This document shows, in pieces, positions 1,113 to 48,674 of a stretch of DNA of 64,000 nt (its first letter is position 1; the number at the start of each line of letters is the position of its first letter). The notes beneath the pieces were generated by a model. That model had not been told where the DNA came from. It was given only the letters and a program-made list of their open reading frames with translations, and searched no databases. The DNA is taken from NCBI GenBank assembly GCA_024280885.1, contig JAJRPF010000070.1, positions 107,861-171,860 on the forward strand, read 5' to 3'. Made by a program: the position numbers and the translations under genes. Origin of the DNA: Planctomycetota bacterium. GTDB taxonomy: Bacteria > Planctomycetota > JAJSAM01 > JAJVHW01.

Positions 1113-1131
1113 AACGGCACTCTGTGCCGTT
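1113..1131. promoter_or_regulatory. Perfect 8-bp-arm palindrome AACGGCAC-TCT-GTGCCGTT ~40 bp upstream of the TetR start; candidate TetR operator
   Basis: Read directly in the sequence. It lies in the divergent intergenic region between the PfaD-like gene and the TetR gene. Confidence 0.3.
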
Positions 1132-1169
1132 TGTCACCGAGTGTCACGATTAAAAAGCGAGATCTGCCC

Positions 1170-1775
1170 ATGCCAAGCGGTCTACGAGAGCAAAAGAAGG
1201 CGGAGACGCGCGCGGCCCTCGTCAAGGCGGCCCAGGATCTCTTCCGCAAGCAGGGATATGAGGCCACGACGATCGAGGAGATCGCGGAACTGGCCTCCAT
1301 CTCGCGGCGCACGTTCTTTCGCTACTTCCCCACAAAAGAGGATCTGGTCTTCCCGCAGCAGGAGTCGCGGTTGCAGGGGTTCATGATGCTGCTCGAGACG
1401 CATCGCCCCGAGGAGACCCCCTTCGAGACGTTGCGCAACCTGACGGCGCTCTTCGCAGCGGACTACACGCGCCACGCCGAGCGGATCCTCGTCCAGCAGG
1501 AGTTGATCCTCTCGTCACCCGACCTCCTCGCCCGCGAGCGCGAGATCGACCGCGCGTGGGAGGCCACGATGTTCGAGTACCTCGCCAAGTGGGGCGGCGG
1601 CGGACGCGAGGCCGAGCACCGCGCGCGCGTGCTCGCCGGTGCGGCGATCGGCGTCATCCGCGCGACGCTGCGCTATTGGTTCAGCACGGGCGGCACCGAG
1701 GACCTCAACCAACTCGGGCAAGAGGCGCTCGACTTCCTCGAACAGGGCTTCCGCAAGATCGTCCCGATGGACTGA
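1170..1775 (+). CDS. TetR/AcrR family transcriptional regulator
   Basis: N-terminal HTH: RAALVKAAQDLFRKQGYEATTIEEIAELASISRRTFFRYFPTKEDLV. ATG at 1170 preferred over the TTG at 1131 given in the track. Confidence 0.85.
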   Translation: MPSGLREQKKAETRAALVKAAQDLFRKQGYEATTIEEIAELASISRRTFFRYFPTKEDLVFPQQESRLQGFMMLLETHRPEETPFETLRNLTALFAADYTRHAERILVQQELILSSPDLLAREREIDRAWEATMFEYLAKWGGGGREAEHRARVLAGAAIGVIRATLRYWFSTGGTEDLNQLGQEALDFLEQGFRKIVPMD

Positions 1776-1786
1776 CCGGGTAGGGA

Positions 1787-1874
1787 GCCAGGACAACTTC
1801 GGCAGAGTTCGGAGCGCGGGCGACGCAAGCACAACGACGCTGCCCCGAACTCCGCCGAAGTTGTCCTGGCTCCG
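1787..1874. repeat. Palindromic structured repeat, copy 1 (29-nt arms GGAGCCAGGACAACTTCGGCAGAGTTCGG / CCGAACTCCGCCGAAGTTGTCCTGGCTCC around a ~30-nt centre)
   Basis: Near-perfect inverted repeat. A second copy at 17426..17514 carries compensatory arm substitutions. Confidence 0.7.
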
Positions 1875-1928
1875 TATCTAGACCGACTCGTCCGCGTTCG
1901 CCGAGCCGAGTGGTAGAGTCGTGGCATC

Positions 1929-2441
1929 ATGAAAATCCTCCATGCGAAGAACGGCCCGCTCGCGGGCAACTCGTACAAGCTCGGCGCGAGCACCGTGATC
2001 GGTCGCGACGGCGAGTCGGATATCCAGCTCATCGACGACGGCGTCTCGCGGCGACACGCCTGCGTTGTCGAGAACGAGAACGGCAGCTTCTCCATCATCG
2101 ATCTCGGCAGCCGTAACGGTACGCAGGTGTGCGGAGAAGCCGTCCGCACGCGAAGCCTCGCGCAGCGCGACGAGATCACGATCGGCGGTACGACGTTTCT
2201 CTTCGGCGAGGTCGACGACGCGCAGGTGGATACGGACCATCCCGACATGCGCCTGACCAGCGGCCCCGCACTCGAGAGCACCGTCATGCACGAGGTCAGT
2301 GACGTCGTCGCGGATCTCCGCGCCAGAGCCGCCGCCGGCGAGGCCGCGTCGCCCTCGCCGTGCTGCGACAGCCCACTGGCGAGCCGCGCACAGACCGAGG
2401 GCTGGGCGCATTGTCCCTCGTGTGGCTCTCCCGTCGAGTAG
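1929..2441 (+). CDS. FHA-domain protein with Cys-rich C-terminal tail
   Basis: GRDGESDIQLIDDGVSRRHACVV...NGSFSIIDLGSRNGTQV is a canonical FHA core. The C-terminus CCDSP...HCPSCGSP is zinc-ribbon-like. Confidence 0.8.
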   Translation: MKILHAKNGPLAGNSYKLGASTVIGRDGESDIQLIDDGVSRRHACVVENENGSFSIIDLGSRNGTQVCGEAVRTRSLAQRDEITIGGTTFLFGEVDDAQVDTDHPDMRLTSGPALESTVMHEVSDVVADLRARAAAGEAASPSPCCDSPLASRAQTEGWAHCPSCGSPVE

Positions 2442-2494
2442 CCGTCGCCGGTTCCGCCCGGGTTTGCGGCTGGGCCCCTACACTGCGCGGTTCC

Positions 2495-4111
2495 ATGCCG
2501 AACACGCGCTTCTACGTCACGACCCCGATCTATTACGTCAACGATCGGCCGCATACCGGACACGCCTACACCTCCGTGTTGGCGGACGTCATGGCGGGCT
2601 ACCACCGCCTGCTCGGGATCGACACGTGGTTCCTGACCGGCACCGACGAGCACGGGCAGAAGGTGCAGGACTCTGCCGCCGAACGTGACGTGGCGCCGCA
2701 GGCTCTGTGCGATGAGATGGCTGCGCACTTTGGCGACTTGCTGGAGCGTCTGCGCGTCCGGAACGACGATTTCGTGCGCACGACCGAGCCGCGTCACACC
2801 GCCGTCGTGACGCAGGTACTCGCGGAATTGCATGCCCGCGGCGACGTGTATCTCGATCACTACGAGGGCTGGTATTGCGCGCGCTGTGAGCGCTATTGGA
2901 CCGACCGTGACGTCGAGGAGCAGGGCGGCGGTCGCTGCCCGGACCAGCCCGAGTTGCACGGCGTCGAGCGACTTGCGGAGGAGAACTACTACTTCCGCAT
3001 GTCGAAGTACGCCGATCGGTTGCGCGAGGCGATCGAGACCGACGTGTTCCGCGTTCATCCCGAGAAGCGCAAGAACGAGGTGCTTGGTTTCCTGAAAAAG
3101 GGCCTCACCGATCTTTGCATCAGCCGCAATCGAGAGCGGCTGTCGTGGGGAGTGCCGCTCCCTTTCGATGACAAATACGTCTGCTACGTCTGGGTCGATG
3201 CGCTCTTCAACTACAAGAGCGCGATCGGGTATCTCGCCGCCGATGACGCAGAGCACGAGCGCCATGCGCGGTGGTGGCCCGCGGACGTCCACGTGATCGG
3301 CAAGGACATCCTCACGACGCACGCGGTCTACTGGCCGACGCTTCTGATGGCGATGGGGGAGGCACTCCCGCGCATGGTGCTCGCGCACGGCTGGTTGCTG
3401 GACTCCAGGGGCGGCAAGCTCAGCAAGACCAAACGCGAGGGCGACGACGCGGAGGGCGTGTTGCCGGTGCCGACCATCGACGGTCTGCTCGACGTATTCG
3501 GCGCCGACGGCACGCGCTGGTTCCTCGCTACGGCGATGAAGCCAGGCGACGACACAGCGTTCGATTGGACGATCGTGCGCGAGCGCGTGAATACCGATCT
3601 GGCGAACGGTCTTGGCAACACGGCGAACCGGCTACTGAAGATGGCGGCCGGCGCGTGCGACGGTGTCTTCCCCGGACTGGGCGAAGACGACGATGTGGGG
3701 GAGACGCAAGAGCGCGTTCGTGCAGCAGCCGTTGCGGCGGTCGACGCGGTGCGCGCCTTCCCGGAGACGCTTGACGTGACGGCGGTCGTGGCCGCTGTCC
3801 GGAGTGGCGTGGCTGCGATCTCGCTCTTCCTGCAAGACGAGAAGCCGTGGAAACTCGTGAAGACCGACGACGGGCTGCCGCGCGCGCGCATCGTGATCGC
3901 TTGGTCGCTCGAGTCGCTGCGGTTGCTCGCTCTCGCCGTCCATCCCATACTGCCTGAGTCATTCGCCACACTCCGTACGGCACTCGGGATGACCGGCGAT
4001 CTCGATTTCGCGCGCGAGTCGCAATTCGGTGCGCTGCCCGAGGGGGCTCGTCTGGGCGCACCGCCGAATCTCTTCCCCCGTATCGGAGCTGACGCCATTC
4101 CCTCCGCGTAG
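2495..4111 (+). CDS. metG: Methionyl-tRNA synthetase (short form without C-terminal tRNA-binding domain)
   Basis: MPNTRFYVTTPIYYVNDRPHTGHAYTSVLADV (HIGH-type motif) and KLSKTKREG (KMSKS-type). The ORF begins at the ATG at 2495; the track ORF from 2360 carries an N-terminal shadow extension. Confidence 0.9.
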   Translation: MPNTRFYVTTPIYYVNDRPHTGHAYTSVLADVMAGYHRLLGIDTWFLTGTDEHGQKVQDSAAERDVAPQALCDEMAAHFGDLLERLRVRNDDFVRTTEPRHTAVVTQVLAELHARGDVYLDHYEGWYCARCERYWTDRDVEEQGGGRCPDQPELHGVERLAEENYYFRMSKYADRLREAIETDVFRVHPEKRKNEVLGFLKKGLTDLCISRNRERLSWGVPLPFDDKYVCYVWVDALFNYKSAIGYLAADDAEHERHARWWPADVHVIGKDILTTHAVYWPTLLMAMGEALPRMVLAHGWLLDSRGGKLSKTKREGDDAEGVLPVPTIDGLLDVFGADGTRWFLATAMKPGDDTAFDWTIVRERVNTDLANGLGNTANRLLKMAAGACDGVFPGLGEDDDVGETQERVRAAAVAAVDAVRAFPETLDVTAVVAAVRSGVAAISLFLQDEKPWKLVKTDDGLPRARIVIAWSLESLRLLALAVHPILPESFATLRTALGMTGDLDFARESQFGALPEGARLGAPPNLFPRIGADAIPSA

Positions 4112-8757: not shown

Positions 8758-8993
8758 GTCTCTGGCATGTTGTCGGCGTGCCGAGACGTGCGCGGGCCGG
8801 CCCGTCGCGAGCGGACGTGGACCGGGTCCGCGCGGTCGGCGAGAAGTATCTTCCACACAGGACATCTCGGCGCGTCGCTGTAGTTGTCGCTGCGAAGTAC
8901 AGAACCCGGATGAACTCTTCGGCCCACCGACGCGTCCGAAGAATCCACCCGGGTTCAGCACTTCAGGGATAGGTCGAGTCGGAGGCACGCCCT

Positions 8994-10552: not shown

Positions 10553-10934
10553 CGGGGCCCCGCGTGCGAATCCGCGGACAGACCCCGGGTCTGAAGAAGA
10601 GGGGGAGAGCCGCAGCGGTGCGGTCGAGTGCCCGTGAACTTTTGCCCCGTGAACTTGCACGGGACGCCTGTCAGCGATCGAAGCGCTGAACTAGGGGCCC
10701 GGCCAGAAACCCCCGCGGCGCCGGTGAAGGCGTGATTGCTGGCCGACGTGCGGAGCATCCACCGCGCCCGGGCGGGCCGTCTGCCGCGGCTGCCAGGCTC
10801 GGAGACTCTCCGGAGTCGAGTCGCCTGGCACCCACGACAGCCGTCCCACCCGGACACGTCCGGCTATCCACGGGGGTTTCTAGCCGCACCCCTAGCGGTG
10901 GTTCGGGCCGCGGCTCGAGATCAGACGGTGGGTG

Positions 10935-15285: not shown

Positions 15286-16119
15286 ATGCCACGCACTCGC
15301 TTCGTCGCGCTCTACACGGACTTCGGCACCACCGACATCTACGCCGGAGTCGTGCATGGCATCATTCGTACGCTCGCACCGGAGGCTGGCGTGATCGACC
15401 TGACGCACGGGATCGCGGCGGGGGATCGCCATGGCGGTGCGTTCATGCTCCTCTCTGCGGTGCCTTTTCTCCCGCGTGGCACGGTGCATCTCTGTGTCGT
15501 GGACCCCGGCGTGGGCACCGAGCGGCGGATCGTTGCCGTGCGGGCGGGCGGCCACACGTTCGTCGGCCCGGACAACGGCGTCTTCGCCCCCGTGGTCGAG
15601 GCTCTGGGCGGCGTCACGGATCTGCGCTACGTCACGAATGAGCGGCTGATGCGAAGGCGGCGCAGCGCGACGTTCGAGGCGCGTGACATCATGGCCCCCG
15701 TCGTGGCGCATCTCGTGCGCGGGATCGACTTCGCCGCGGTGGGGGAGGTTGCCGACGAACTGGTGCCGCTGCCGGGCTTCGCTCCCGAGGTGGCCGCCAC
15801 GCAGGCGCGTGGGCGTGTGTTGCACGTGGATCGCTATGGGAACGTCGTCACGAACCTACTCCCCGGCGAGTTGCACGGCCCGCGCGGCAGCTGGCAACTC
15901 GAGGTGGGCGGGTGCGTCGTGGATCGCTGGGGTACGACGTTCGGGGATGTCGCTCCCGGCGAGCTGGTGGTCTATCCCGGCAGCGTCGGATTCCTGGAGG
16001 TCGCGCAGCGCGACGGCGACGCAGCCGGGCGGCTTGGCGTCTCGATCGGGGACGCGGTGCTGGCGCGGCCAGGCGGCGGCGCGAACAGTGTGGGCGCAGC
16101 GCCGGGAGAGAGCGCGTGA
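15286..16119 (+). CDS. SAM hydroxide adenosyltransferase family protein (DUF62; fluorinase/chlorinase-like SAM hydrolase)
   Basis: ALYTDFGTTDIYAGVVHGII...DLTHGI...GAFML...GTVHLCVVDPGVGTERR...GGHTFVGPDNGV matches the DUF62 signature. Confidence 0.8.
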   Translation: MPRTRFVALYTDFGTTDIYAGVVHGIIRTLAPEAGVIDLTHGIAAGDRHGGAFMLLSAVPFLPRGTVHLCVVDPGVGTERRIVAVRAGGHTFVGPDNGVFAPVVEALGGVTDLRYVTNERLMRRRRSATFEARDIMAPVVAHLVRGIDFAAVGEVADELVPLPGFAPEVAATQARGRVLHVDRYGNVVTNLLPGELHGPRGSWQLEVGGCVVDRWGTTFGDVAPGELVVYPGSVGFLEVAQRDGDAAGRLGVSIGDAVLARPGGGANSVGAAPGESA

Positions 16120-17402
16120 GGACGCTCTATCTCGACTGCTTCTCGGGCATCGCGGGCGACATGTTCGTCGGGGCGCTCATCGATCTCGGTGCGCCCTTCG
16201 AAACGATCCGGGCCGGATTGGAACGCCTGGGGCCGATGGGGCCGGGCGGCTTCGAAGTCGGCGTCCGCGAAGTGGAGCGCGGAGCCATTCGCGCCACGAA
16301 GTTCGATGTGCGCGTCGCCGGACACGTGGCCGACTCGCCCGAGCACGTGGACCATCAGCATGGGCATCATCACGCGGATCACGCTGATCCGCTGCGCGCC
16401 GCACACGGACCGCAGGCCGGAGCCGCCGATCTCCCCGCGCGTGGATTGCGCGAGGTGCGTGCCCTGATCGAGCCGGCGGATCTGCCCGATACGGTGAAGA
16501 CGCGCGCTCTCGCGGCATTCTCGCTGCTGGCCGAGGCCGAGGGGCGTATCCACGGTCGTCCGGCAGACCAGGTGCACTTTCACGAAGTCGGCGCCGTGGA
16601 TGCGATCTGCGACATCGTCGGCGTCGCGCTCGCCCTCGACGCTCTCGATGTGCAGGACGTGCGCGTCGGTCCACTCCGCGTCGGATCCGGGTTTGTCCAA
16701 TGCGCGCACGGCAAGCTGCCGGTGCCCGCTCCCGCGACGCTGGAATGCCTGACCGGCTTCGACGTGCGGATGGATGCCGGCAGGGGCGAGCTCATCACGC
16801 CGACCGGCGCGTGTCTTCTCGCCGCGCTCGCCACGCCGATCATTTCCGCGACGGGCGGCGCGCTCGGCGAGTTCCGCGTCGAGCGCGTCGGCTACGGGGC
16901 GGGAACGCGCAACCCGGAGGGCGTCCCGAACGTCCTGCGGGCTGTCCTTGGAGAGACGCCGGAGTCGGACGCCGAGCCGTTGATGGAACTGCGTACGAAC
17001 GTCGATCATCTGCCCCCGAACGTGTTGGCCGCGGGGCTCGAAAGCGTGCGCGCTGCCGGGGCGCTCGAGGTCTTCACGACGCCGTGCACGATGAAGAAGG
17101 GGCGCAGCGGACACCTCATCACGGTGCTCGTACCGGCGTCGCGCCGCGCCGACGCCGAGACGGCACTCTTCCGCGAGACGGGAACGCTCGGCATCCGTGC
17201 GTTCCCCGTCACACGGAGCGTGCTCTCCCGCGCGTTCGAGACGGTGGCGACGCCGTGGGGTGCGGTACACGTCAAGCTGGGTCGCCATCGCGGTCGCGTC
17301 ACCAGCCGCGAGCCGGAACTGGAAGACTGCCGACGTCTCGCGGGCGAGCACGGCGTCGCGGTCGCGGACGTGGTGGCCGCAGCCCGGCGCGCTGATGGGT
17401 AG
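16116..17402 (+). CDS. larC: LarC-family nickel insertase (DUF111, nickel-pincer cofactor biosynthesis type)
   Basis: GTG start at 16116 overlaps the upstream stop (GTGA). N-terminus MRTLYLDCFSGIAGDMFVGALIDLG is the LarC hallmark. The His-rich stretch HVDHQHGHHHADH fits a Ni site. Confidence 0.8.
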   Translation: MRTLYLDCFSGIAGDMFVGALIDLGAPFETIRAGLERLGPMGPGGFEVGVREVERGAIRATKFDVRVAGHVADSPEHVDHQHGHHHADHADPLRAAHGPQAGAADLPARGLREVRALIEPADLPDTVKTRALAAFSLLAEAEGRIHGRPADQVHFHEVGAVDAICDIVGVALALDALDVQDVRVGPLRVGSGFVQCAHGKLPVPAPATLECLTGFDVRMDAGRGELITPTGACLLAALATPIISATGGALGEFRVERVGYGAGTRNPEGVPNVLRAVLGETPESDAEPLMELRTNVDHLPPNVLAAGLESVRAAGALEVFTTPCTMKKGRSGHLITVLVPASRRADAETALFRETGTLGIRAFPVTRSVLSRAFETVATPWGAVHVKLGRHRGRVTSREPELEDCRRLAGEHGVAVADVVAAARRADG

Positions 17403-17425
17403 GGGCGACACGGAGCCAGCGATAC

Positions 17426-17514
17426 GGAGCCAGGACAGTTCCGGCAGAGTTCGGGGCACGGGTAACGCAAGCACGACGGCGCTCTCCGAACTCTGCCGGA
17501 ATTGTCCTGGCTCC
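17426..17514. repeat. Palindromic structured repeat, copy 2
   Basis: GGAGCCAGGACAGTTCCGGCAGAGTTCGG ... CCGAACTCTGCCGGAATTGTCCTGGCTCC. Arms differ from copy 1 at paired positions (ACTT/GAAGT versus GTTC/GGAAT) while preserving base pairing. Confidence 0.7.
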
Positions 17515-17544
17515 GTATCGAGCCGTCCCGGGTAGCTTCGCCCC

Positions 17545-18918
17545 GTGAGTACGAACGAAGCCCCCCCGCACGCGATGGACGTCCTCCTGGTCGAGGACGA
17601 GAAGACGATTGCGATCACCTTGCGTGATGCACTCGAAGAGGACGGCCACAACGTCACCGTGGCCTGCGATGGCCTCGAGGGGCGCCGCCACATCGAGGAC
17701 CGCACGTACGACGTCGTGATCACGGACCTCAAGATGCCCGGGATGCCGGGGATGGAGGTCCTGCGCCTCGCGAAGAGCAACTCGCCGGATACCGAGGTCA
17801 TCGTAATGACCGGCTACGGCACCGTCGAGACCGCCGTCGAGGCGATGAAGTCGGGTGCCTACGAGTACATCTTGAAGCCCTTCTCGAACGAGGAGGTCGT
17901 GCACTACCTGCGGCGCATCGCCGCGCAACGCAAGTTGGTCGCAGAGAACCGCTCGCTGAAGGAACAACTCGGCCGCGCCCAGAGTCTGGAAGGGCTGATC
18001 GGTCAGTCGCGCCCCATGCGCGAGGTTTTCCAGACCATCCGCCTCGTCGCGCCGGGCGACGCGCGCATCCTGGTCGTCGGCGAGAGTGGTACGGGCAAGG
18101 AACTCGTCGCGCGCGCCATCCACAATCTCTCCGAGCGCCGCGCGAAGCCGCTGGTTGCGATCTCGTGCGCGTCGGTTCCAGAGACGCTGCTCGAGGACAC
18201 GCTCTTCGGCCACGAGGCGGGCGCGTACACAGGGGCGACCGACCGTCGCATCGGGCGCTTCGAGTACGCCGATGGCGGGACCGTGTTGCTCGATGACATC
18301 GACGACATGCCGCTCTCCACGCAGGTGAAGCTCCTGCGCGTCCTGCAAGAGGGCGAGGTGGAGCGGCTTGGGTCCGCCGCGCCGCTCCACGTCGACGTGC
18401 GCGTGATCGCTGCGACGAAGGTCGATCTTCTCGATGCGGTCGAAGACGGTCGCTTTCGCCGTGATCTCTACTATCGCCTGAACGTCGTCCCCATCGAGCT
18501 GCCCCCGCTGCGCGATCGCGAGGACGATCTCAAGCTACTGGCGCAGCACTTCATCGAGTGCTTCGGTAAGAAGACGGCGTTCCGGATCGAAGACGAACTC
18601 GTCGACGAGATGCTGCGCTACTCGTGGCCAGGGAACGTCCGCGAACTCGAGCACTCGATCGAGCGTGCGATCGCGCTGGCGGGCGGCAACGAGGTACTGC
18701 AGCGGGTCCACATTCTCGGAACGAAGGCCGTCCCCACGCGTCGCGCCGCGCCTGCGCGCGTCACCACGCTGCGCGAAGCCGTCGAGGAGGCCGAGAAGGG
18801 GGCGATCCGCGCCGCTCTCGAACACACCGGCGGCCGCAAGGCCGAGGCCGCGAAGGTCCTGGGCATCTCCCGCAAGAATCTGTGGGAGAAGATGAAGGCG
18901 TACGAACTCGAGGCCTGA
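17545..18918 (+). CDS. Sigma-54-dependent response regulator (NtrC family: REC + AAA+ + Fis HTH)
   Basis: Receiver motifs (DVLLVEDE, VITDLKMPGM), AAA+ GESGTGKE, GAFTGA-like (GHEAGAYTGA) and a C-terminal HTH. Confidence 0.85.
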   Translation: MSTNEAPPHAMDVLLVEDEKTIAITLRDALEEDGHNVTVACDGLEGRRHIEDRTYDVVITDLKMPGMPGMEVLRLAKSNSPDTEVIVMTGYGTVETAVEAMKSGAYEYILKPFSNEEVVHYLRRIAAQRKLVAENRSLKEQLGRAQSLEGLIGQSRPMREVFQTIRLVAPGDARILVVGESGTGKELVARAIHNLSERRAKPLVAISCASVPETLLEDTLFGHEAGAYTGATDRRIGRFEYADGGTVLLDDIDDMPLSTQVKLLRVLQEGEVERLGSAAPLHVDVRVIAATKVDLLDAVEDGRFRRDLYYRLNVVPIELPPLRDREDDLKLLAQHFIECFGKKTAFRIEDELVDEMLRYSWPGNVRELEHSIERAIALAGGNEVLQRVHILGTKAVPTRRAAPARVTTLREAVEEAEKGAIRAALEHTGGRKAEAAKVLGISRKNLWEKMKAYELEA

Positions 18919-22655: not shown

Positions 22656-24353
22656 ATGAATCCCAAAGAACTCCTGAAGCGCGTTGACATCCCCAAGGAC
22701 CGCCTCGAAGAGGAAGTCGAGAGCGCATTCGCGGCCTCCGGCCTCACCGACGGTTATGAGGACACGGTCAACGCGTTCTCCACGGATACGGTCCTGAAGG
22801 GCCGCGTGCTCGACATCATCAACGACGATGTGATCGTCGATGTCGGCTACAAGTCCGAGGGCATCATCCCCAAGTGGGAATTCGAGAACCCCGAGGACAT
22901 CGACATCGGCGACGAGGTCGAGGTGCTGCTCGAGGCCGTCGAGGACGAGACCGGAGCCATCGTGCTCAGCAAGCGCAAGGCCGATCGCCTACGCGGCTGG
23001 GAACGGGTCATCGCCAACAACAACGAAGGCGATGCCGTGCGCGGCAAGGTCATGCGCAAGATCAAGGGTGGCCTGGTCGTCGACATCGGCGTTCCGGTCT
23101 TCCTCCCGGCCTCCCAGGTTTCCATCCGCCGTCATGCGGATATCTCCGAGTTCATCGGACAGGAGATCGAGGGCAAGATCATCAAGATCGACGAGAGCCG
23201 CATGAACATCGTCATCTCGCGTCGCCGCCTCATCGAGGAACAGCGCGACTCCATGAAGCGTCAGCTCATGGACGAGATCGCCGAGGGCCAAGTGCGGCGC
23301 GGCATCGTCAAGAACATCGCCGACTTCGGCGCGTTCGTCGACCTGGGCGGGATCGACGGTCTGCTCCACATCACCGACATGAGCTGGGGCCGCGTCGGTC
23401 ACCCGAGCGAGGTCGTGAAGATCGAGCAGGAGCTCGACGTCGTGATCCTGAAGGTCGATCGCGATCGCGAGCGCATCGCGCTCGGTCTCAAGCAGCTCAC
23501 GCCGTCGCCTTGGAAGAAGGTCGACGAGCGCTACCCGCTCGGCACGCGTGTCGATGGCGAGGTCACGAACATCGTCAACTACGGCGCGTTCGTCAAGCTG
23601 GAGGAGGGCCTCGAGGGCCTCGTCCACATCTCCGAGATGTCCTGGACCAAGCGCATCAACCACCCGAGCGAGCTGCTCACGGTGGGCGAAAAGGTCGAGG
23701 TCATCGTGCTCGACATCAACAAGGAGAAGAAGGAGATCAGTCTCGGCATGAAGCAGACCGAGACGAATCCCTGGGATCTCGTCGAGAGCAAGTACCCGAC
23801 CGGAACGATGATCGAGGGCGAGGTGCGCAACCTCACCAACTACGGCGCGTTCATCGAGATCGAGGAGGGCATCGATGGCCTCCTGCACGTCTCGGATATG
23901 TCCTGGACGAAGAAGGTCTCGCATCCGAGCGAGGTCCTCGAGAAGGGCGACAAGGTCAAGGCCGTCGTCCTCTCCGTCGACCAGGACAAGAAGCGCGTGG
24001 CACTCGGCGTGAAGCAGCTGCTCTCCGACCCGTGGCGCGACGACATCCCGATGCGTTATGGCATCGGTACGATCGTGGACGGCAAGGTCACGAAGCTCAC
24101 GAACTTCGGCGTTTTCGTCGAACTCGAGGAGGGCCTCGAGGGTCTGCTCCACGTCTCGGAACTGACGGAGGATCGCGAGGTCGCTCCCGAGGAGATCGTG
24201 AAGGTTGGCGACGAGGTGCAGGTCAAGGTCATCCGGGTGGACCCGGAGGATCGCAAGATCGGCCTCACCTTGATGGGCGGCGAGGAAAGCGAAGCGGTCG
24301 AAGACCCCGTCGACCTCTCGCGCGATCGCAAGAGCGAGCGCCCCAAGAAGTAG
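22656..24353 (+). CDS. rpsA: 30S ribosomal protein S1
   Basis: Six S1 domains (repeated GxVxxIxxFGAFVxL motifs). Confidence 0.9.
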
Positions 24354-46021: not shown

Positions 46022-46330
46022 CGCCAAGGGGAAAGATCTGGGGAAACGGTCAAACCCGAAGACGCCCGAGGTGACGTACGTGCCCCACGGTGCAGGTCGG
46101 ATGTGGTCTGCGACCATGTGGATTGGCGCGGAGTCGGTACCCAAGGCCGCGAAGCGACGTCGGTATCCGAGTCGGAGTGGGCGAAGCCCAGTCCCCCGTG
46201 CTCATGAACCTGACCGCTATCGTCACGGTATCTCCCAATCGGCGCGCTGGCCTGCGGCCGCGCTCCGGCCCGGCGTGGTGGGCGATGCTGGACTTGAACC
46301 AGTGACATCCCTGCGTGTCGGTCAGGTGCG
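46022..46330. repeat. Left copy of a ~300-bp duplicated segment, ending in a 3-prime-half tRNA-Val fragment (46276..46330)
   Basis: 46276..46330 matches the 3-prime 55 nt of tRNA-Val at 48598..48652 with ~5 mismatches. 46150..46245 is ~85% identical to 48475..48568. The distal block CCGTTTCCCCAGATCTTTCCCCTTGGCG matches 48373..48400. Confidence 0.7.
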
Positions 46331-48372: not shown

Positions 48373-48597
48373 CGCCAAGGGGAAGGATTCGGGGAAACGG
48401 TTGGGCCCGGATCGGCGCATGTGCCTTCCGGGCCTTGTCTCGCGTGGTGGGGCTCCCAGGACTTGAACCGAGCGAAGCGAGGTCTGCGACCGAGTCGAAC
48501 TGGGCGCAGCCCAGTTCCCCGTGGTCGTGAACCTGACCGCTATCGTCACGGCCTCTCCCAATCGGGGCGTTGATCCAAAGCCGCGCAGGTTCCCGCG
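48373..48597. repeat. Right copy of the duplicated segment, contiguous with intact tRNA-Val
   Basis: See the left copy. Contains stable hairpins (GAACTGGGC-TGC-GCCCAGTTC; CCGTG...CACGG). Confidence 0.7.
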
Positions 48598-48674
48598 TGG
48601 TGGGCGATACTGGACTTGAACCAGTGACCCCCTGCGTGTCGAGCAGGTGCTCTAGCCAACTGAGCTAATCGCCC
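48598..48674 (-). tRNA. tRNA-Val (anticodon GAC)
   Basis: Manual cloverleaf: GGGCGAT/ATCGCCC acceptor, GCTC-AGTTGGCTA-GAGC D arm, CCTGC-TCGACAC-GCAGG anticodon arm, ACTGG-TTCAAGT-CCAGT T arm, CCA encoded. Confidence 0.85.

Follow-up and report, generated by a model that had tools for sequence, protein, structure and literature searches.

Intergenic inverted repeats of about 100-150 nt, such as Correia in Neisseria, ERIC, and RUP, fold, when they are co-transcribed, into long RNA hairpins with effects on mRNA processing, and as MITEs they are derived from or attributed to DDE insertion sequences and carry direct target duplications (TA for Correia). Other hairpin repeats are associated with Y1 transposases. 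REPINs consist of invariant ends and a variable, hairpin-forming spacer in which compensatory changes are common (Bertels & Rainey 2011, PMC3116915). TIRYT genes are flanked by TIRs able to form repeat families, and both REP sub-families with alternative complementary stem residues and the Rhodopirellula families GTAG-20 and GTAG-21 have been described (Di Nocera et al. 2013, PMC3733652). TnpA-Y1 subclass 2.1, to which the TIRYTs correspond and which is equivalent to Bertels RAYT group 1, comprises long RAYTs with a C-terminal HTH, and no REP-like structures have been reported for it (Quentin et al. 2018, PMC6006769).

Two copies of a hairpin element lie in the window, by which the whole 64-kb stretch of DNA that was analysed is meant (Table 1), and they probably belong to a family of extragenic, non-autonomous hairpin repeats of the type known as REP/REPIN or TIR repeats, moved by a Y1 transposase. 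Like a REPIN, the element is symmetric, measures about 90-100 nt, and has two invariant ends around a less conserved spacer that keeps the hairpin through frequent compensation; it is extragenic, and in relatives that share its box the cognate Y1 gene is flanked by the repeats. Unlike those of a REPIN, its arms are not palindromic REPs themselves, which places it outside the strict REP-doublet definition, its tag is GATAC/GTAC instead of the canonical GTAG/GTGG, and the protein associated with it, about twice the length of a REPIN RAYT, ends in an HTH tail. With the classical REPs and BIMEs of Enterobacteria and Pseudomonas, which are GTAG-tagged and 20-40 bp long, it shares an extragenic palindrome with a short conserved foot tag, sited after genes and between convergent or co-directional ones, but it is three times longer, forms a single 36-47-bp stem, and, GTAC being a palindrome, bears the tag on both sides.

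Table 1. Positions of the hairpin copies, their parts, and neighbouring features in the window
Feature	Positions	Strand	Basis and remarks
TetR-family regulator gene	1131-1775	+	Upstream of copy 1; Pfam TetR_N, E 1.3e-15
Hairpin element, copy 1	1779-1878 (100 nt)	.	Sequence and alignment
Copy 1, 5' arm	1779-1814		
Copy 1, asymmetric centre	1815-1842		Type A
Copy 1, 3' arm	1843-1878		
FHA-domain protein gene	1929-2441	+	Downstream of copy 1; Pfam FHA, E 5.3e-17
Possible decayed relative	8896-8962	.	Imperfect hairpin GTAC-AGAACCCGGATGAACTCTTCGG ... CCGAAGAATCCACCCGGGTTCAGCAC
larC (nickel-pincer cofactor nickel insertion)	16116-17402	+	Upstream of copy 2; Pfam Ni_insertion, E 9.4e-129
Partial direct copy of element terminus (ACGGAGCCAG)	17410-17419	+	Just outside copy 2
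Hairpin element, copy 2	17421-17519 (99 nt)	.	Sequence and alignment
Copy 2, 5' arm	17421-17456		
Copy 2, centre	17457-17483		Type A, oriented as in copy 1
Copy 2, 3' arm	17484-17519		
Sigma-54-dependent response regulator gene	17545-18918	+	Downstream of copy 2; Pfam Response_reg, Sigma54_activat, HTH_8

Each copy measures about 100 nt and combines the tag G(A)TAC and the invariant box GGAGCCAGGACA with a stem of 36 bp and an asymmetric centre of 26-28 nt. The almost invariant foot reads (C)GATAC-GGAGCCAGGACA, the terminal inverted repeats can be written CGGAGCCAGGACAACTTCGG or CGGAGCCAGGAC..., and the element can be expressed as the pattern GATACGGAGCCAGGACA. The original prediction had recognised the hairpin and drawn it too short, at about 88 nt with a stem of about 29 bp and a centre of about 30 nt. 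A 5-nt inverted tag (GGTAG/GATAC ... GTATC) lies inside both copies, and the 12-mer GGAGCCAGGACA occurs four times in the window, once per arm, against 0.27 occurrences expected by chance. The predicted gene neighbours, TetR then FHA and LarC then the sigma-54 regulator, were identified as such by Pfam. Copy 1 begins 3 nt past the TetR stop codon (TGA, 1773-1775), and 50 nt separate its end from the FHA ATG at 1929; copy 2 begins 18 nt past the LarC stop codon (TAG, 17400-17402), its end lying 25 nt short of the regulator GTG at 17545. The larC reading frame is open from 15912, and a database protein of 428 aa (P0001, 100% identical) implies a start near 16116; the closest named relative of LarC comes from a Planctomycetes MAG (56% identity).

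Both window copies fold strongly, as RNA on either strand (-69 to -80 kcal/mol, z -9.6 to -13.2) and as DNA (-41.6 and -44 kcal/mol, z -10.2 and -11.6), with z values of -9.6 as RNA and -10.2 as DNA for copy 1 and of -13.2 and -11.6 for copy 2. The stem differences that had been claimed to compensate one another (ACTT/GTTC against GAAGT/GGAAT) do so, pair 19:82 changing from C-G in copy 1 to U-A in copy 2, pair 21:80 from U-A to C-G, and pair 18:83 from A-U to G-U. A covariance-model scan with filters off found no further strong copy in the window. The imperfect hairpin at 8896-8962 matched weakly (32.9 bits, E 1e-5; DNA fold z -3.3), and its membership in the family is uncertain; a match at 10763-10858 was dropped as a copy at a fold z of -0.5. 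Partial terminus copies like the one just outside copy 2 adjoin 8 of the 44 flanks in the family, where TACGG was observed six times against 0.75 expected and CGGAGCC three times against 0.28.

The window-type arm pattern led to 21 further loci on metagenome contigs, almost all from one metagenome and with unrelated flanks, while the exact pattern had no match in GTDB species genomes and neither of the two search patterns matched a viral contig. In the window-type alignment of 22 copies the box is invariant, the 36-bp stem has 95.4% of its cells paired, and six pairs change on both sides, amounting to 16 cells against 7.2+-2.1 in shuffles (0/500 reaching that value). Over its outer 17 nt each arm hardly varies in sequence, and one arm alone lacks any structure (DNA fold z +0.7 to -0.6). 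The original proposal that selection acts on secondary structure instead of sequence thus holds for the pairing and fails for the outer arms and for any RNA-strand signature. The tag is GATAC in most copies and GTAG in only two, window copy 1 among them. One apparent case of a single locus with a flipped centre (L003 and L010) was rejected, as a second repeat family abuts the element and the resemblance is not orthology.

The same foot recurs beyond this alignment. A search requiring only 11 nt per arm, with the identity of the G(A)TAC tag left free, found the 17-nt foot G(A)TAC-GGAGCCAGGACA at the base of near-perfect hairpins of 87-98 nt in several Planctomycetota MAGs, with stems of 42-49 bp and 0-2 mismatches. 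Among six copies from one MAG, 12 of 42 pairs are changed on both sides and none on one side only, with 99% of cells paired. In about 60 fetched loci the paired boxes always stand 50-80 nt apart, except for a few solitary or degenerate boxes and those that flank Y1 genes; the ORFs between paired or solo boxes at L032 and L044 encode no transposase.

The association with transposases emerged through a syntenic relative of the larC region (L052; SAM_HAT-LarC-NtrC-DUF4178). Its Y1 gene was rejected as a partner of the element, as the gene and its homologues carry GGGGACAC-type TIRs, but this protein and its homologues, used as queries, brought up RAYT/TIRYT-like HUH-Y1 genes (about 316-350 aa, with a C-terminal HTH) flanked by box arms or hairpins at six independent loci. 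At L035, a hairpin is followed by a gene at 2005-3054 and by a second hairpin overlapping the 3' end of that gene, in the same MAG as at least seven dispersed copies of the same hairpin type; the other loci are L042, L056, L057, L058, and L059/L060, and at these loci the 3' end of the Y1 gene runs into a box arm or hairpin. The HUH motif TH[YF]HLL and the motif Y-I-D-x-N are invariant in the alignment of the L035 and L042 proteins, which score 32.0 and 25.6 bits against Pfam Y1_Tnp (gathering score 23). NCBIfam REP_Tyr_transpos (NF047646) is the only or top match, at E 1e-12 to 1e-17 over the whole profile, with scores of 46.5 and 62.4 bits below the equivalog cut-off of 80; a sequence search of the PDB returned no relatives.

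Homologues of these proteins number over 1000, most of them in Planctomycetota MAGs, and many are annotated at source as 'REP element-mobilizing transposase RayT'. Among the best 120, many have C-termini that encode the box (e.g. ..VRSQD.., ..TIPSQDKIHR, ..GTEP), and none has a window-type arm there. The link to the window element consists of the 17-nt foot and a few further bases, as in L056 GGACAACTCC versus GGACAACTTC in the window. It is thus seen in relatives that share the box rather than in the window's own genome, and tblastn found no Y1 transposase gene in the 64-kb window. A RayT is nonetheless likely to be encoded elsewhere in that genome and may mobilise the element.

Compared with the TIR repeats or 'TIRtrons' of TIRYTs, of which loci L052-L055 are textbook examples with GGGGACAC... 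TIRs, the box-associated genes likewise encode HUH-Y1 proteins of about 330-350 aa with a C-terminal HTH-like extension and lie between inverted arms rather than short REPs, arms that can form moderately abundant, self-complementary dispersed families. They differ in the foot, G(A)TAC-GGAGCCAGGAC here versus GGGG[AT][CG]A[CG], and in the proteins, which are only about 31-36% identical to L052-L055-type TIRYTs, over the N-terminal core only. By motif resemblance the box-associated proteins would fall into subclass 2.1, from whose description they depart in having complete hairpins both on either side of the gene and at dispersed sites. No GGAGCC-type consensus appears in text form in the supplementary files of PMC3733652.

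A mechanism modelled on IS200/IS605 would account for these features. The TnpA of those elements is likewise an HUH-Y1 enzyme that recognises hairpins in single-stranded DNA and inserts next to a tag without duplication, but there the hairpins are small, imperfect, and subterminal, at the ends of a gene-carrying element, whereas here one giant hairpin is the repeat unit. Where its DNA is single-stranded, as it may be on the lagging-strand template, the element would fold into a hairpin, and a RAYT/TIRYT-type HUH-Y1 transposase encoded elsewhere in the genome would recognise the G(A)TAC tag and the box at the hairpin base. By cutting and rejoining DNA, it would place the element, copied or moved, in short gaps between genes and in the apexes of other hairpins. 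The inner stem can vary as long as the arms remain complementary, and the centre can both vary and flip. A requirement for a DNA hairpin, correction of one arm by the other, or the two together may underlie the compensatory changes, rather than an RNA function. The mobility itself is deduced from sequence comparison, and the original suggestion of a REP/MITE-like mobile palindrome agrees well with a multi-copy element at unrelated loci whose foot is common to hairpins flanking RAYT-like transposase genes.

It is also possible, although doubtful, that the element belongs to an undescribed superfamily of 'giant REPs', defined by the common foot G(A)TAC-GGAGCCAGGAC, a long HTH-tailed RAYT/TIRYT clade, insertion into apexes, and arms kept by copying or correction. 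A foot of about 17 nt would then be common to distantly related genomes and served by a clade whose subclass has no REP-like partners in the literature. Insertion at a G(A)TAC exposed in a hairpin apex would produce nested palindromes, of which L025, with one copy inside another in three layers, could be an example. The strictly Watson-Crick arms might be kept by fold-back synthesis or hairpin repair and not by selection alone, and such a copying or correction step would explain apexes that are hypervariable yet perfect.

The hairpins might instead serve the host as a signal that acts in cis at the RNA or DNA level and is kept by site-wise selection, with mobility irrelevant; examples would be a bidirectional terminator lacking a U tract, a stabiliser of mRNA 3' ends, or a palindrome bound by a protein. 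This is unlikely, although the copies are intergenic, at least 12 of the 22 start 3-26 nt downstream of a stop codon, several are located between genes that converge or run in the same direction, the hairpins have extreme stability as RNA, and stabilisation of upstream mRNA is a known effect of REPs. Purifying selection on insertions in a compact genome would equally leave copies just after stop codons. Neither window copy has a T tract or terminator-like site, the stems being followed by TAGACCGAC and GAGCCGTCC, and a perfect stem of 36-47 bp with a conserved 17-nt foot far exceeds what a terminator needs. The element is absent from the larC-ntrC junction of the syntenic relative, where the spacer measures only 57 nt, and a host signal fits poorly with copies nested in one another and with transposase genes flanked by the box. 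A terminator-like or RNA-stability effect is possible as a side effect of the Y1-mobilised repeat: if transcribed, the window copies would form RNA hairpins of -70 to -80 kcal/mol that could block 3' exonucleases or attenuate read-through.

A classical MITE has slimmer prospects. It would descend by internal deletion from a DDE insertion sequence (e.g. IS630/Tc1-mariner), carry CGGAGCCAGGAC... TIRs and a TA duplication, and move as double-stranded DNA. The long inverted repeats at the termini, the small size of the element, similar to that of Correia, ERIC, and RUP, its extragenic position, and its occurrence in multiple copies would all suit a MITE, and TA flanks the core C-GGAGCC...GGCTCC-G on both sides in 20 of the 22 copies. 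This TA, however, is indistinguishable from part of the palindromic tag and belongs to the longer conserved inverted tag G(A)TAC/GTATC, in which the change at L019 is compensated on the opposite side (GATAG...CTATC). At no offset from the element boundaries did the search for target-site duplications give a direct repeat of at least 3 nt. No DDE transposase is bounded by the box in the roughly 60 fetched loci, and the sole genes found between box arms, at six loci, are Y1 transposases.

A small structured RNA, as had also been suggested, would be a non-coding RNA gene or riboregulator family with one strand transcribed and covariation reflecting RNA-level selection. The compensatory changes, occasional G.U pairs such as 18:83 in copy 2, and a centre motif common to both window copies speak for it, but it is very improbable. 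The core ACGCAAGCAC.ACG.CGCT, originally described as conserved, is indeed present in both window copies, but it is one of at least two unrelated centre types in the family, which occur in both orientations, are uncoupled from the asymmetry of the arms, and have no conserved structure; relative to the upstream gene, seven centres are sense and three antisense. Covariance-model scores are similar on both strands (98.4 bits on the plus and 89.4 on the minus strand for copy 1, 110 and 88.1 for copy 2), as is folding. At pair 26:75 the 22 copies show nine A.C, five G.U, seven A-U, and one G-C, so that A.C mismatches are at least as frequent as G.U, and the Planctomycetota relatives change almost strictly from Watson-Crick to Watson-Crick pairs. 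With similar scores on the two strands, A.C no rarer than G.U, and centres lying both ways, there is no single-strand RNA signature, and the pairing points to a symmetry at the DNA rather than the RNA level. No Rfam family reached its gathering threshold at the element (only a tRNA did so elsewhere in the window), the sub-threshold matches on both strands being eukaryotic miRNA-precursor models, that is, generic long-hairpin matches, and no promoter-like site was found at the window copies.

Recent local duplication inside the 64-kb region with chance differences is scarcely credible, since the two strong window copies, 15.6 kb apart in the same orientation, have flanks unrelated beyond the tag and 21 further copies exist at unrelated loci. 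Integron attC sites are recognised by R''/R' core sites (RYYYAAC ... GTTRRRY), arrays of short cassettes, and a nearby intI. The ends here are GATACGG...CCGTATC, without R''/R' core sites or a cassette array, and the copies lie between housekeeping and regulatory genes; attC, along with CRISPR, a telomere-resolution site, and a retron msd, was rejected on anatomy and context.

The element is most likely ordinary in kind and not a new RNA gene. Recognising it avoids mis-annotation as sRNAs, terminators, or CRISPR-like repeats, and its repetition explains assembly breaks, since most metagenome copies sit on contigs of 1-6 kb. At the two loci in the window, the tetR-FHA and larC-ntrC pairs are split by very stable hairpins, which may uncouple or stabilise their transcripts. 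The 17-nt foot and the RayT clade form a testable candidate cognate pair, probably from the transposase subclass whose DNA partners are least understood, and the strictly complementary, hypervariable stems, together with the nested copies, offer a handle on how Y1 transposases choose their targets and how palindromes are maintained.

The element is real and beyond chance, and is very probably a dispersed repeat of the REP/REPIN/MITE-like kind. Reading and aligning both regions confirmed that it occurs twice on the plus strand of the window as a hairpin, in copies about 88% identical, between the TetR and FHA genes and between the LarC and sigma-54 regulator genes, a gene context that agrees with the original prediction. 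The palindrome described there stands, and its length of ~29 bp does not, as the inverted repeat reaches further in each copy, to a stem of 36 bp (alignment columns 1-36 with 65-100) with a 5-nt inverted tag (GGTAG/GATAC ... GTATC), around a centre of 26-28 nt. Either strand folds with extreme energies, of -69 to -80 kcal/mol as RNA (z -9.6 to -13.2), and the DNA folds reach -41.6 and -44 kcal/mol (z -10.2 and -11.6). The box carried by each arm, GGAGCCAGGACA, is found in the window in these four arms only, against a chance expectation of 0.27. Of the compensatory changes proposed between the two stems, the differences at pairs 19:82 and 21:80 are compensated, and that at 18:83 yields only a wobble pair.

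Coordinates of the element copies, transposase loci and neighbouring repeats
Feature	Sequence	Positions	Strand	Remarks
Copy 1, including 5-nt tag	window	1779-1878	+	alignment
Copy 2, including 5-nt tag	window	17421-17519	+	alignment
Imperfect hairpin	window	8896-8962		GTAC foot, ..CTTCGG...CCGAAG.. arms
Terminus copy, ACGGAGCCAG	window	17410-17419		
Duplicated tRNA-Val segment	window	46149-46330 and 48472-48674		~80% identical
tRNA-Val(gac)	window	48598-48674	-	
Four tandem direct repeats	window	23307-24165		~260 nt each
Upstream box hairpin	L035	1796-1915		full hairpin before Y1 gene
Y1 gene	L035	2005-3054		349 aa
Second box hairpin	L035	2990-3110		gene 3' end reads into hairpin
tRNA-Pro(ggg)	L035	3113-3190		3 nt past hairpin overlapping RayT gene 3' end
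Y1_Tnp gene	L052	5756-7010		350 aa, TIRYT-type
Nested box hairpins	L025	1838-2107		
Nested box hairpin	L039	3943-4140		
Nested box hairpin	L042	7369-7504		
Second repeat family	L003	438-790		tandem
Second repeat family	L010	2363-2660		
Second repeat family	L015	2590-2830		

The arm pattern of the window copies had no match in 185,579 species genomes, and the search for further copies that had first been proposed recovered 21 loci from metagenome contigs, almost entirely of a single sample; this dispersed family rules out local duplication as the origin of the two window copies. The 22 full window-type copies align readily, with a near-invariant tag and box (GATAC-GGAGCCAGGACA) and inner stem (CGGC(A/G)GAGTTCGG), a 4-nt stem box that reads ACTT, GTTT, GTTC, AGTT or GGTT and covaries with its partner on the opposite arm, and centres of at least two sequence types, A (..ACGCAAGCACGACGG..) and B (..GCATCGACACGGCGAATGCC..). 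Across this alignment 95.4% of cells are paired in the stem, and two-sided changes at six pairs amount to 16 cells, against 7.2±2.1 after shuffling (0/500). When a covariance model of these copies was scanned over the window with filters off, it found only the two strong copies (98-110 bits on the plus strand, 88-89 bits on the minus strand) and one further, weak and degenerate match, an imperfect hairpin between convergent ORFs that may be a decayed relative. In L052, a syntenic relative of the second locus (SAM_HAT-LarC-NtrC-...-DUF4178) with a 64% identical LarC, the LarC-NtrC spacer is 57 nt long and lacks the element, and divergence is too great to place an insertion junction.

Other repeats were observed alongside. 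A second non-coding family of ~250 nt, containing GGATGGTGCCCGGTGACG...AGACACCGGGCACCG and CTCCGTGCTTGGTCTCTGGCGGAACG, abuts the element at three metagenome loci and is absent from the window. Within the window, the 3' half of tRNA-Val(gac) and ~125 nt downstream recur 2.3 kb apart, with no second tRNA called, a pattern that could reflect a decayed tRNA copy or an att-like duplication from the integration of a segment. The four tandem repeats (70-85% identity) are, by inspection only, S1 domains of a ribosomal protein S1-like gene and not a non-coding repeat.

A crude gene call based on GC3 places the copies between genes. Of the 22, at least 12 start 3-26 nt past a stop codon (3 nt after the TetR TGA for copy 1, 18 nt after the LarC TAG for copy 2), and some lie between convergent genes, a placement that fits either an insertion bias or survival only where insertion is harmless. 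Since the hairpins lie just after a stop codon, transcription of the upstream gene probably extends through them, and a terminator or RNA-stability effect, one of the roles originally offered, is possible as a hypothesis; no T tract was found at the window copies.

Several lines of evidence speak against an RNA function tied to one strand, and the structured-RNA option is not supported. The window copies show neither a promoter-like site nor a T tract. Covariance-model scores and folds of the window copies are alike on both strands, no Rfam family reached threshold (E-value mode returned only generic eukaryotic miRNA-precursor models, on both strands), and RNAalifold found no conserved structure in the centre. 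The polymorphic stem pair 26:75 is A.C in 9 copies, G.U in 5, A-U in 7 and G-C in 1, and the orientation of the centre is uncoupled from this arm asymmetry, and also from the direction of the gene that ends at the element (of the unambiguous cases, 7 are sense and 3 antisense). Among the roles offered, the mobile REP/MITE-like palindrome is the right one.

Relaxing the palindromic pattern to 11 nt of the box per arm, with arms 50-80 nt apart, retrieved 29 loci in species genomes, mostly from a few Planctomycetota MAGs. Beyond the 11 nt required, these copies also share the tag (GATAC or GTAC) and the same A comes next in nearly all, and the interiors are unrelated to the window type. These Planctomycetota-type hairpins have 42-49-bp stems with 0-2 mismatches and 0-4-nt loops, and their apex sequence varies among copies within one MAG with complementarity kept: in six 87-nt copies from one MAG, 12 of 42 pairs are changed on both sides and none on one side, with 99% of cells paired. 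The changes run from Watson-Crick to Watson-Crick with hardly any wobble, as expected of a DNA palindrome.

Box hairpins also lie in the exact centre of longer palindromes at L025, L039 and L042, with palindromy running 20-95 nt outside the element. L025 holds three box-bearing hairpins, each nested in the apex of the next; at L039 palindromy continues 51 nt past the element, and at L042 it takes in the last codons of a RayT gene. Such nesting suggests that the element would insert beside a G(A)TAC that the apex of a hairpin exposes, with IS200/IS605-type targeting. A search for target-site duplications, also proposed at the outset, found no direct repeat of 3 nt or more at any assumed boundary, and the TA on both sides belongs to the palindromic tag and is thus indistinguishable from a 2-bp duplication. 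The 30 nt flanking the element hold more partial direct copies of its terminus than expected (TACGG, 6 against 0.75 expected; CGGAGCC, 3 against 0.28). Terminus copies (TACGG, ACGGAG, CGGAGCC) flank L002, L005, L006, L009, L010, L016, L018 and a window copy, in all eight cases to the left in the stored contig orientation, for which there is no firm explanation.

In L052, a Y1_Tnp gene with 54-nt inverted repeats at its two ends adjoins the syntenic locus and lies between NtrC-like and DUF4178 genes that are direct neighbours in the window (18918/19023). With its homologues (L053-L055) it is flanked by GGGGACAC-type TIRs, a layout known from TIRYTs or 'TIRtrons' (Di Nocera et al., PMC3733652) and from subclass 2.1 (Quentin et al., PMC6006769), and on account of these TIRs it was rejected as the element's partner. 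A tblastn search with L052-type proteins against all fetched loci found related Y1 genes in two, L035 and L042, which had been retrieved solely for carrying the box. The L035 protein ends in ..TIPSQDKIHR, encoded by ATACCGAGCCAGGACAAAATCCACCG, and its MAG holds at least seven dispersed copies of the same hairpin type. In L042, GTACGTACGGAGCC lies directly upstream of a 335-aa Y1 gene whose final codons (..LVRTEP*) lead into a perfect hairpin with the foot GTACGGAGCC. Full-length identity between the L035 and L042 proteins is 44%, and a profile of both matched 1100 proteins at E<=1e-20. Most of the 120 listed have lengths of 316-377 aa, many bear the name 'REP element-mobilizing transposase RayT', those with a name come mostly from Planctomycetota MAGs, and in many the box is translated at the C-terminus (..VRSQD.., ..VRSQSN.., ..GTEP); none of the 120 ends in a window-type arm. 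Four more loci fetched via such proteins (L056, L057, L058 and L059/L060) share the layout, and in L059/L060 the RayT gene is bracketed by two identical full hairpins. The box-associated proteins carry HUH (TH[YF]HLL) and Y-I-D-x-N motifs and a weak sigma-70 region-4-like HTH tail; they pass Pfam Y1_Tnp, and their sole NCBIfam match, REP_Tyr_transpos, falls under the equivalog cut-off. A RAYT-type Y1 transposase is somewhat favoured as the agent that mobilises the element; the window type is linked to RayT via the shared 17-nt foot of tag and box, which is the weakest step of the interpretation.

Bertels and Rainey (PMC3116915) described REPINs with ends that do not vary, an interior that varies yet forms a hairpin, and compensatory changes, and the element matches this anatomy in all three respects, as the box-flanked genes match the arrangement of REPtrons and TIRtrons (PMC3733652, PMC6006769). 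Four features set it apart from canonical REP/REPIN sequences: its tag (GATAC/GTAC instead of GTAG), single arms that are not palindromic, its size, and a long associated protein with an HTH tail, whose motifs resemble those of subclass 2.1. On these likenesses and four differences, the element is placed by its mode of working alongside REPINs and TIR repeats, outside the canonical GTAG REPs. It forms a new family in this known class, and its relatives are unusual in a foot conserved across distant genomes, in strictly complementary hypervariable stems and in nesting.
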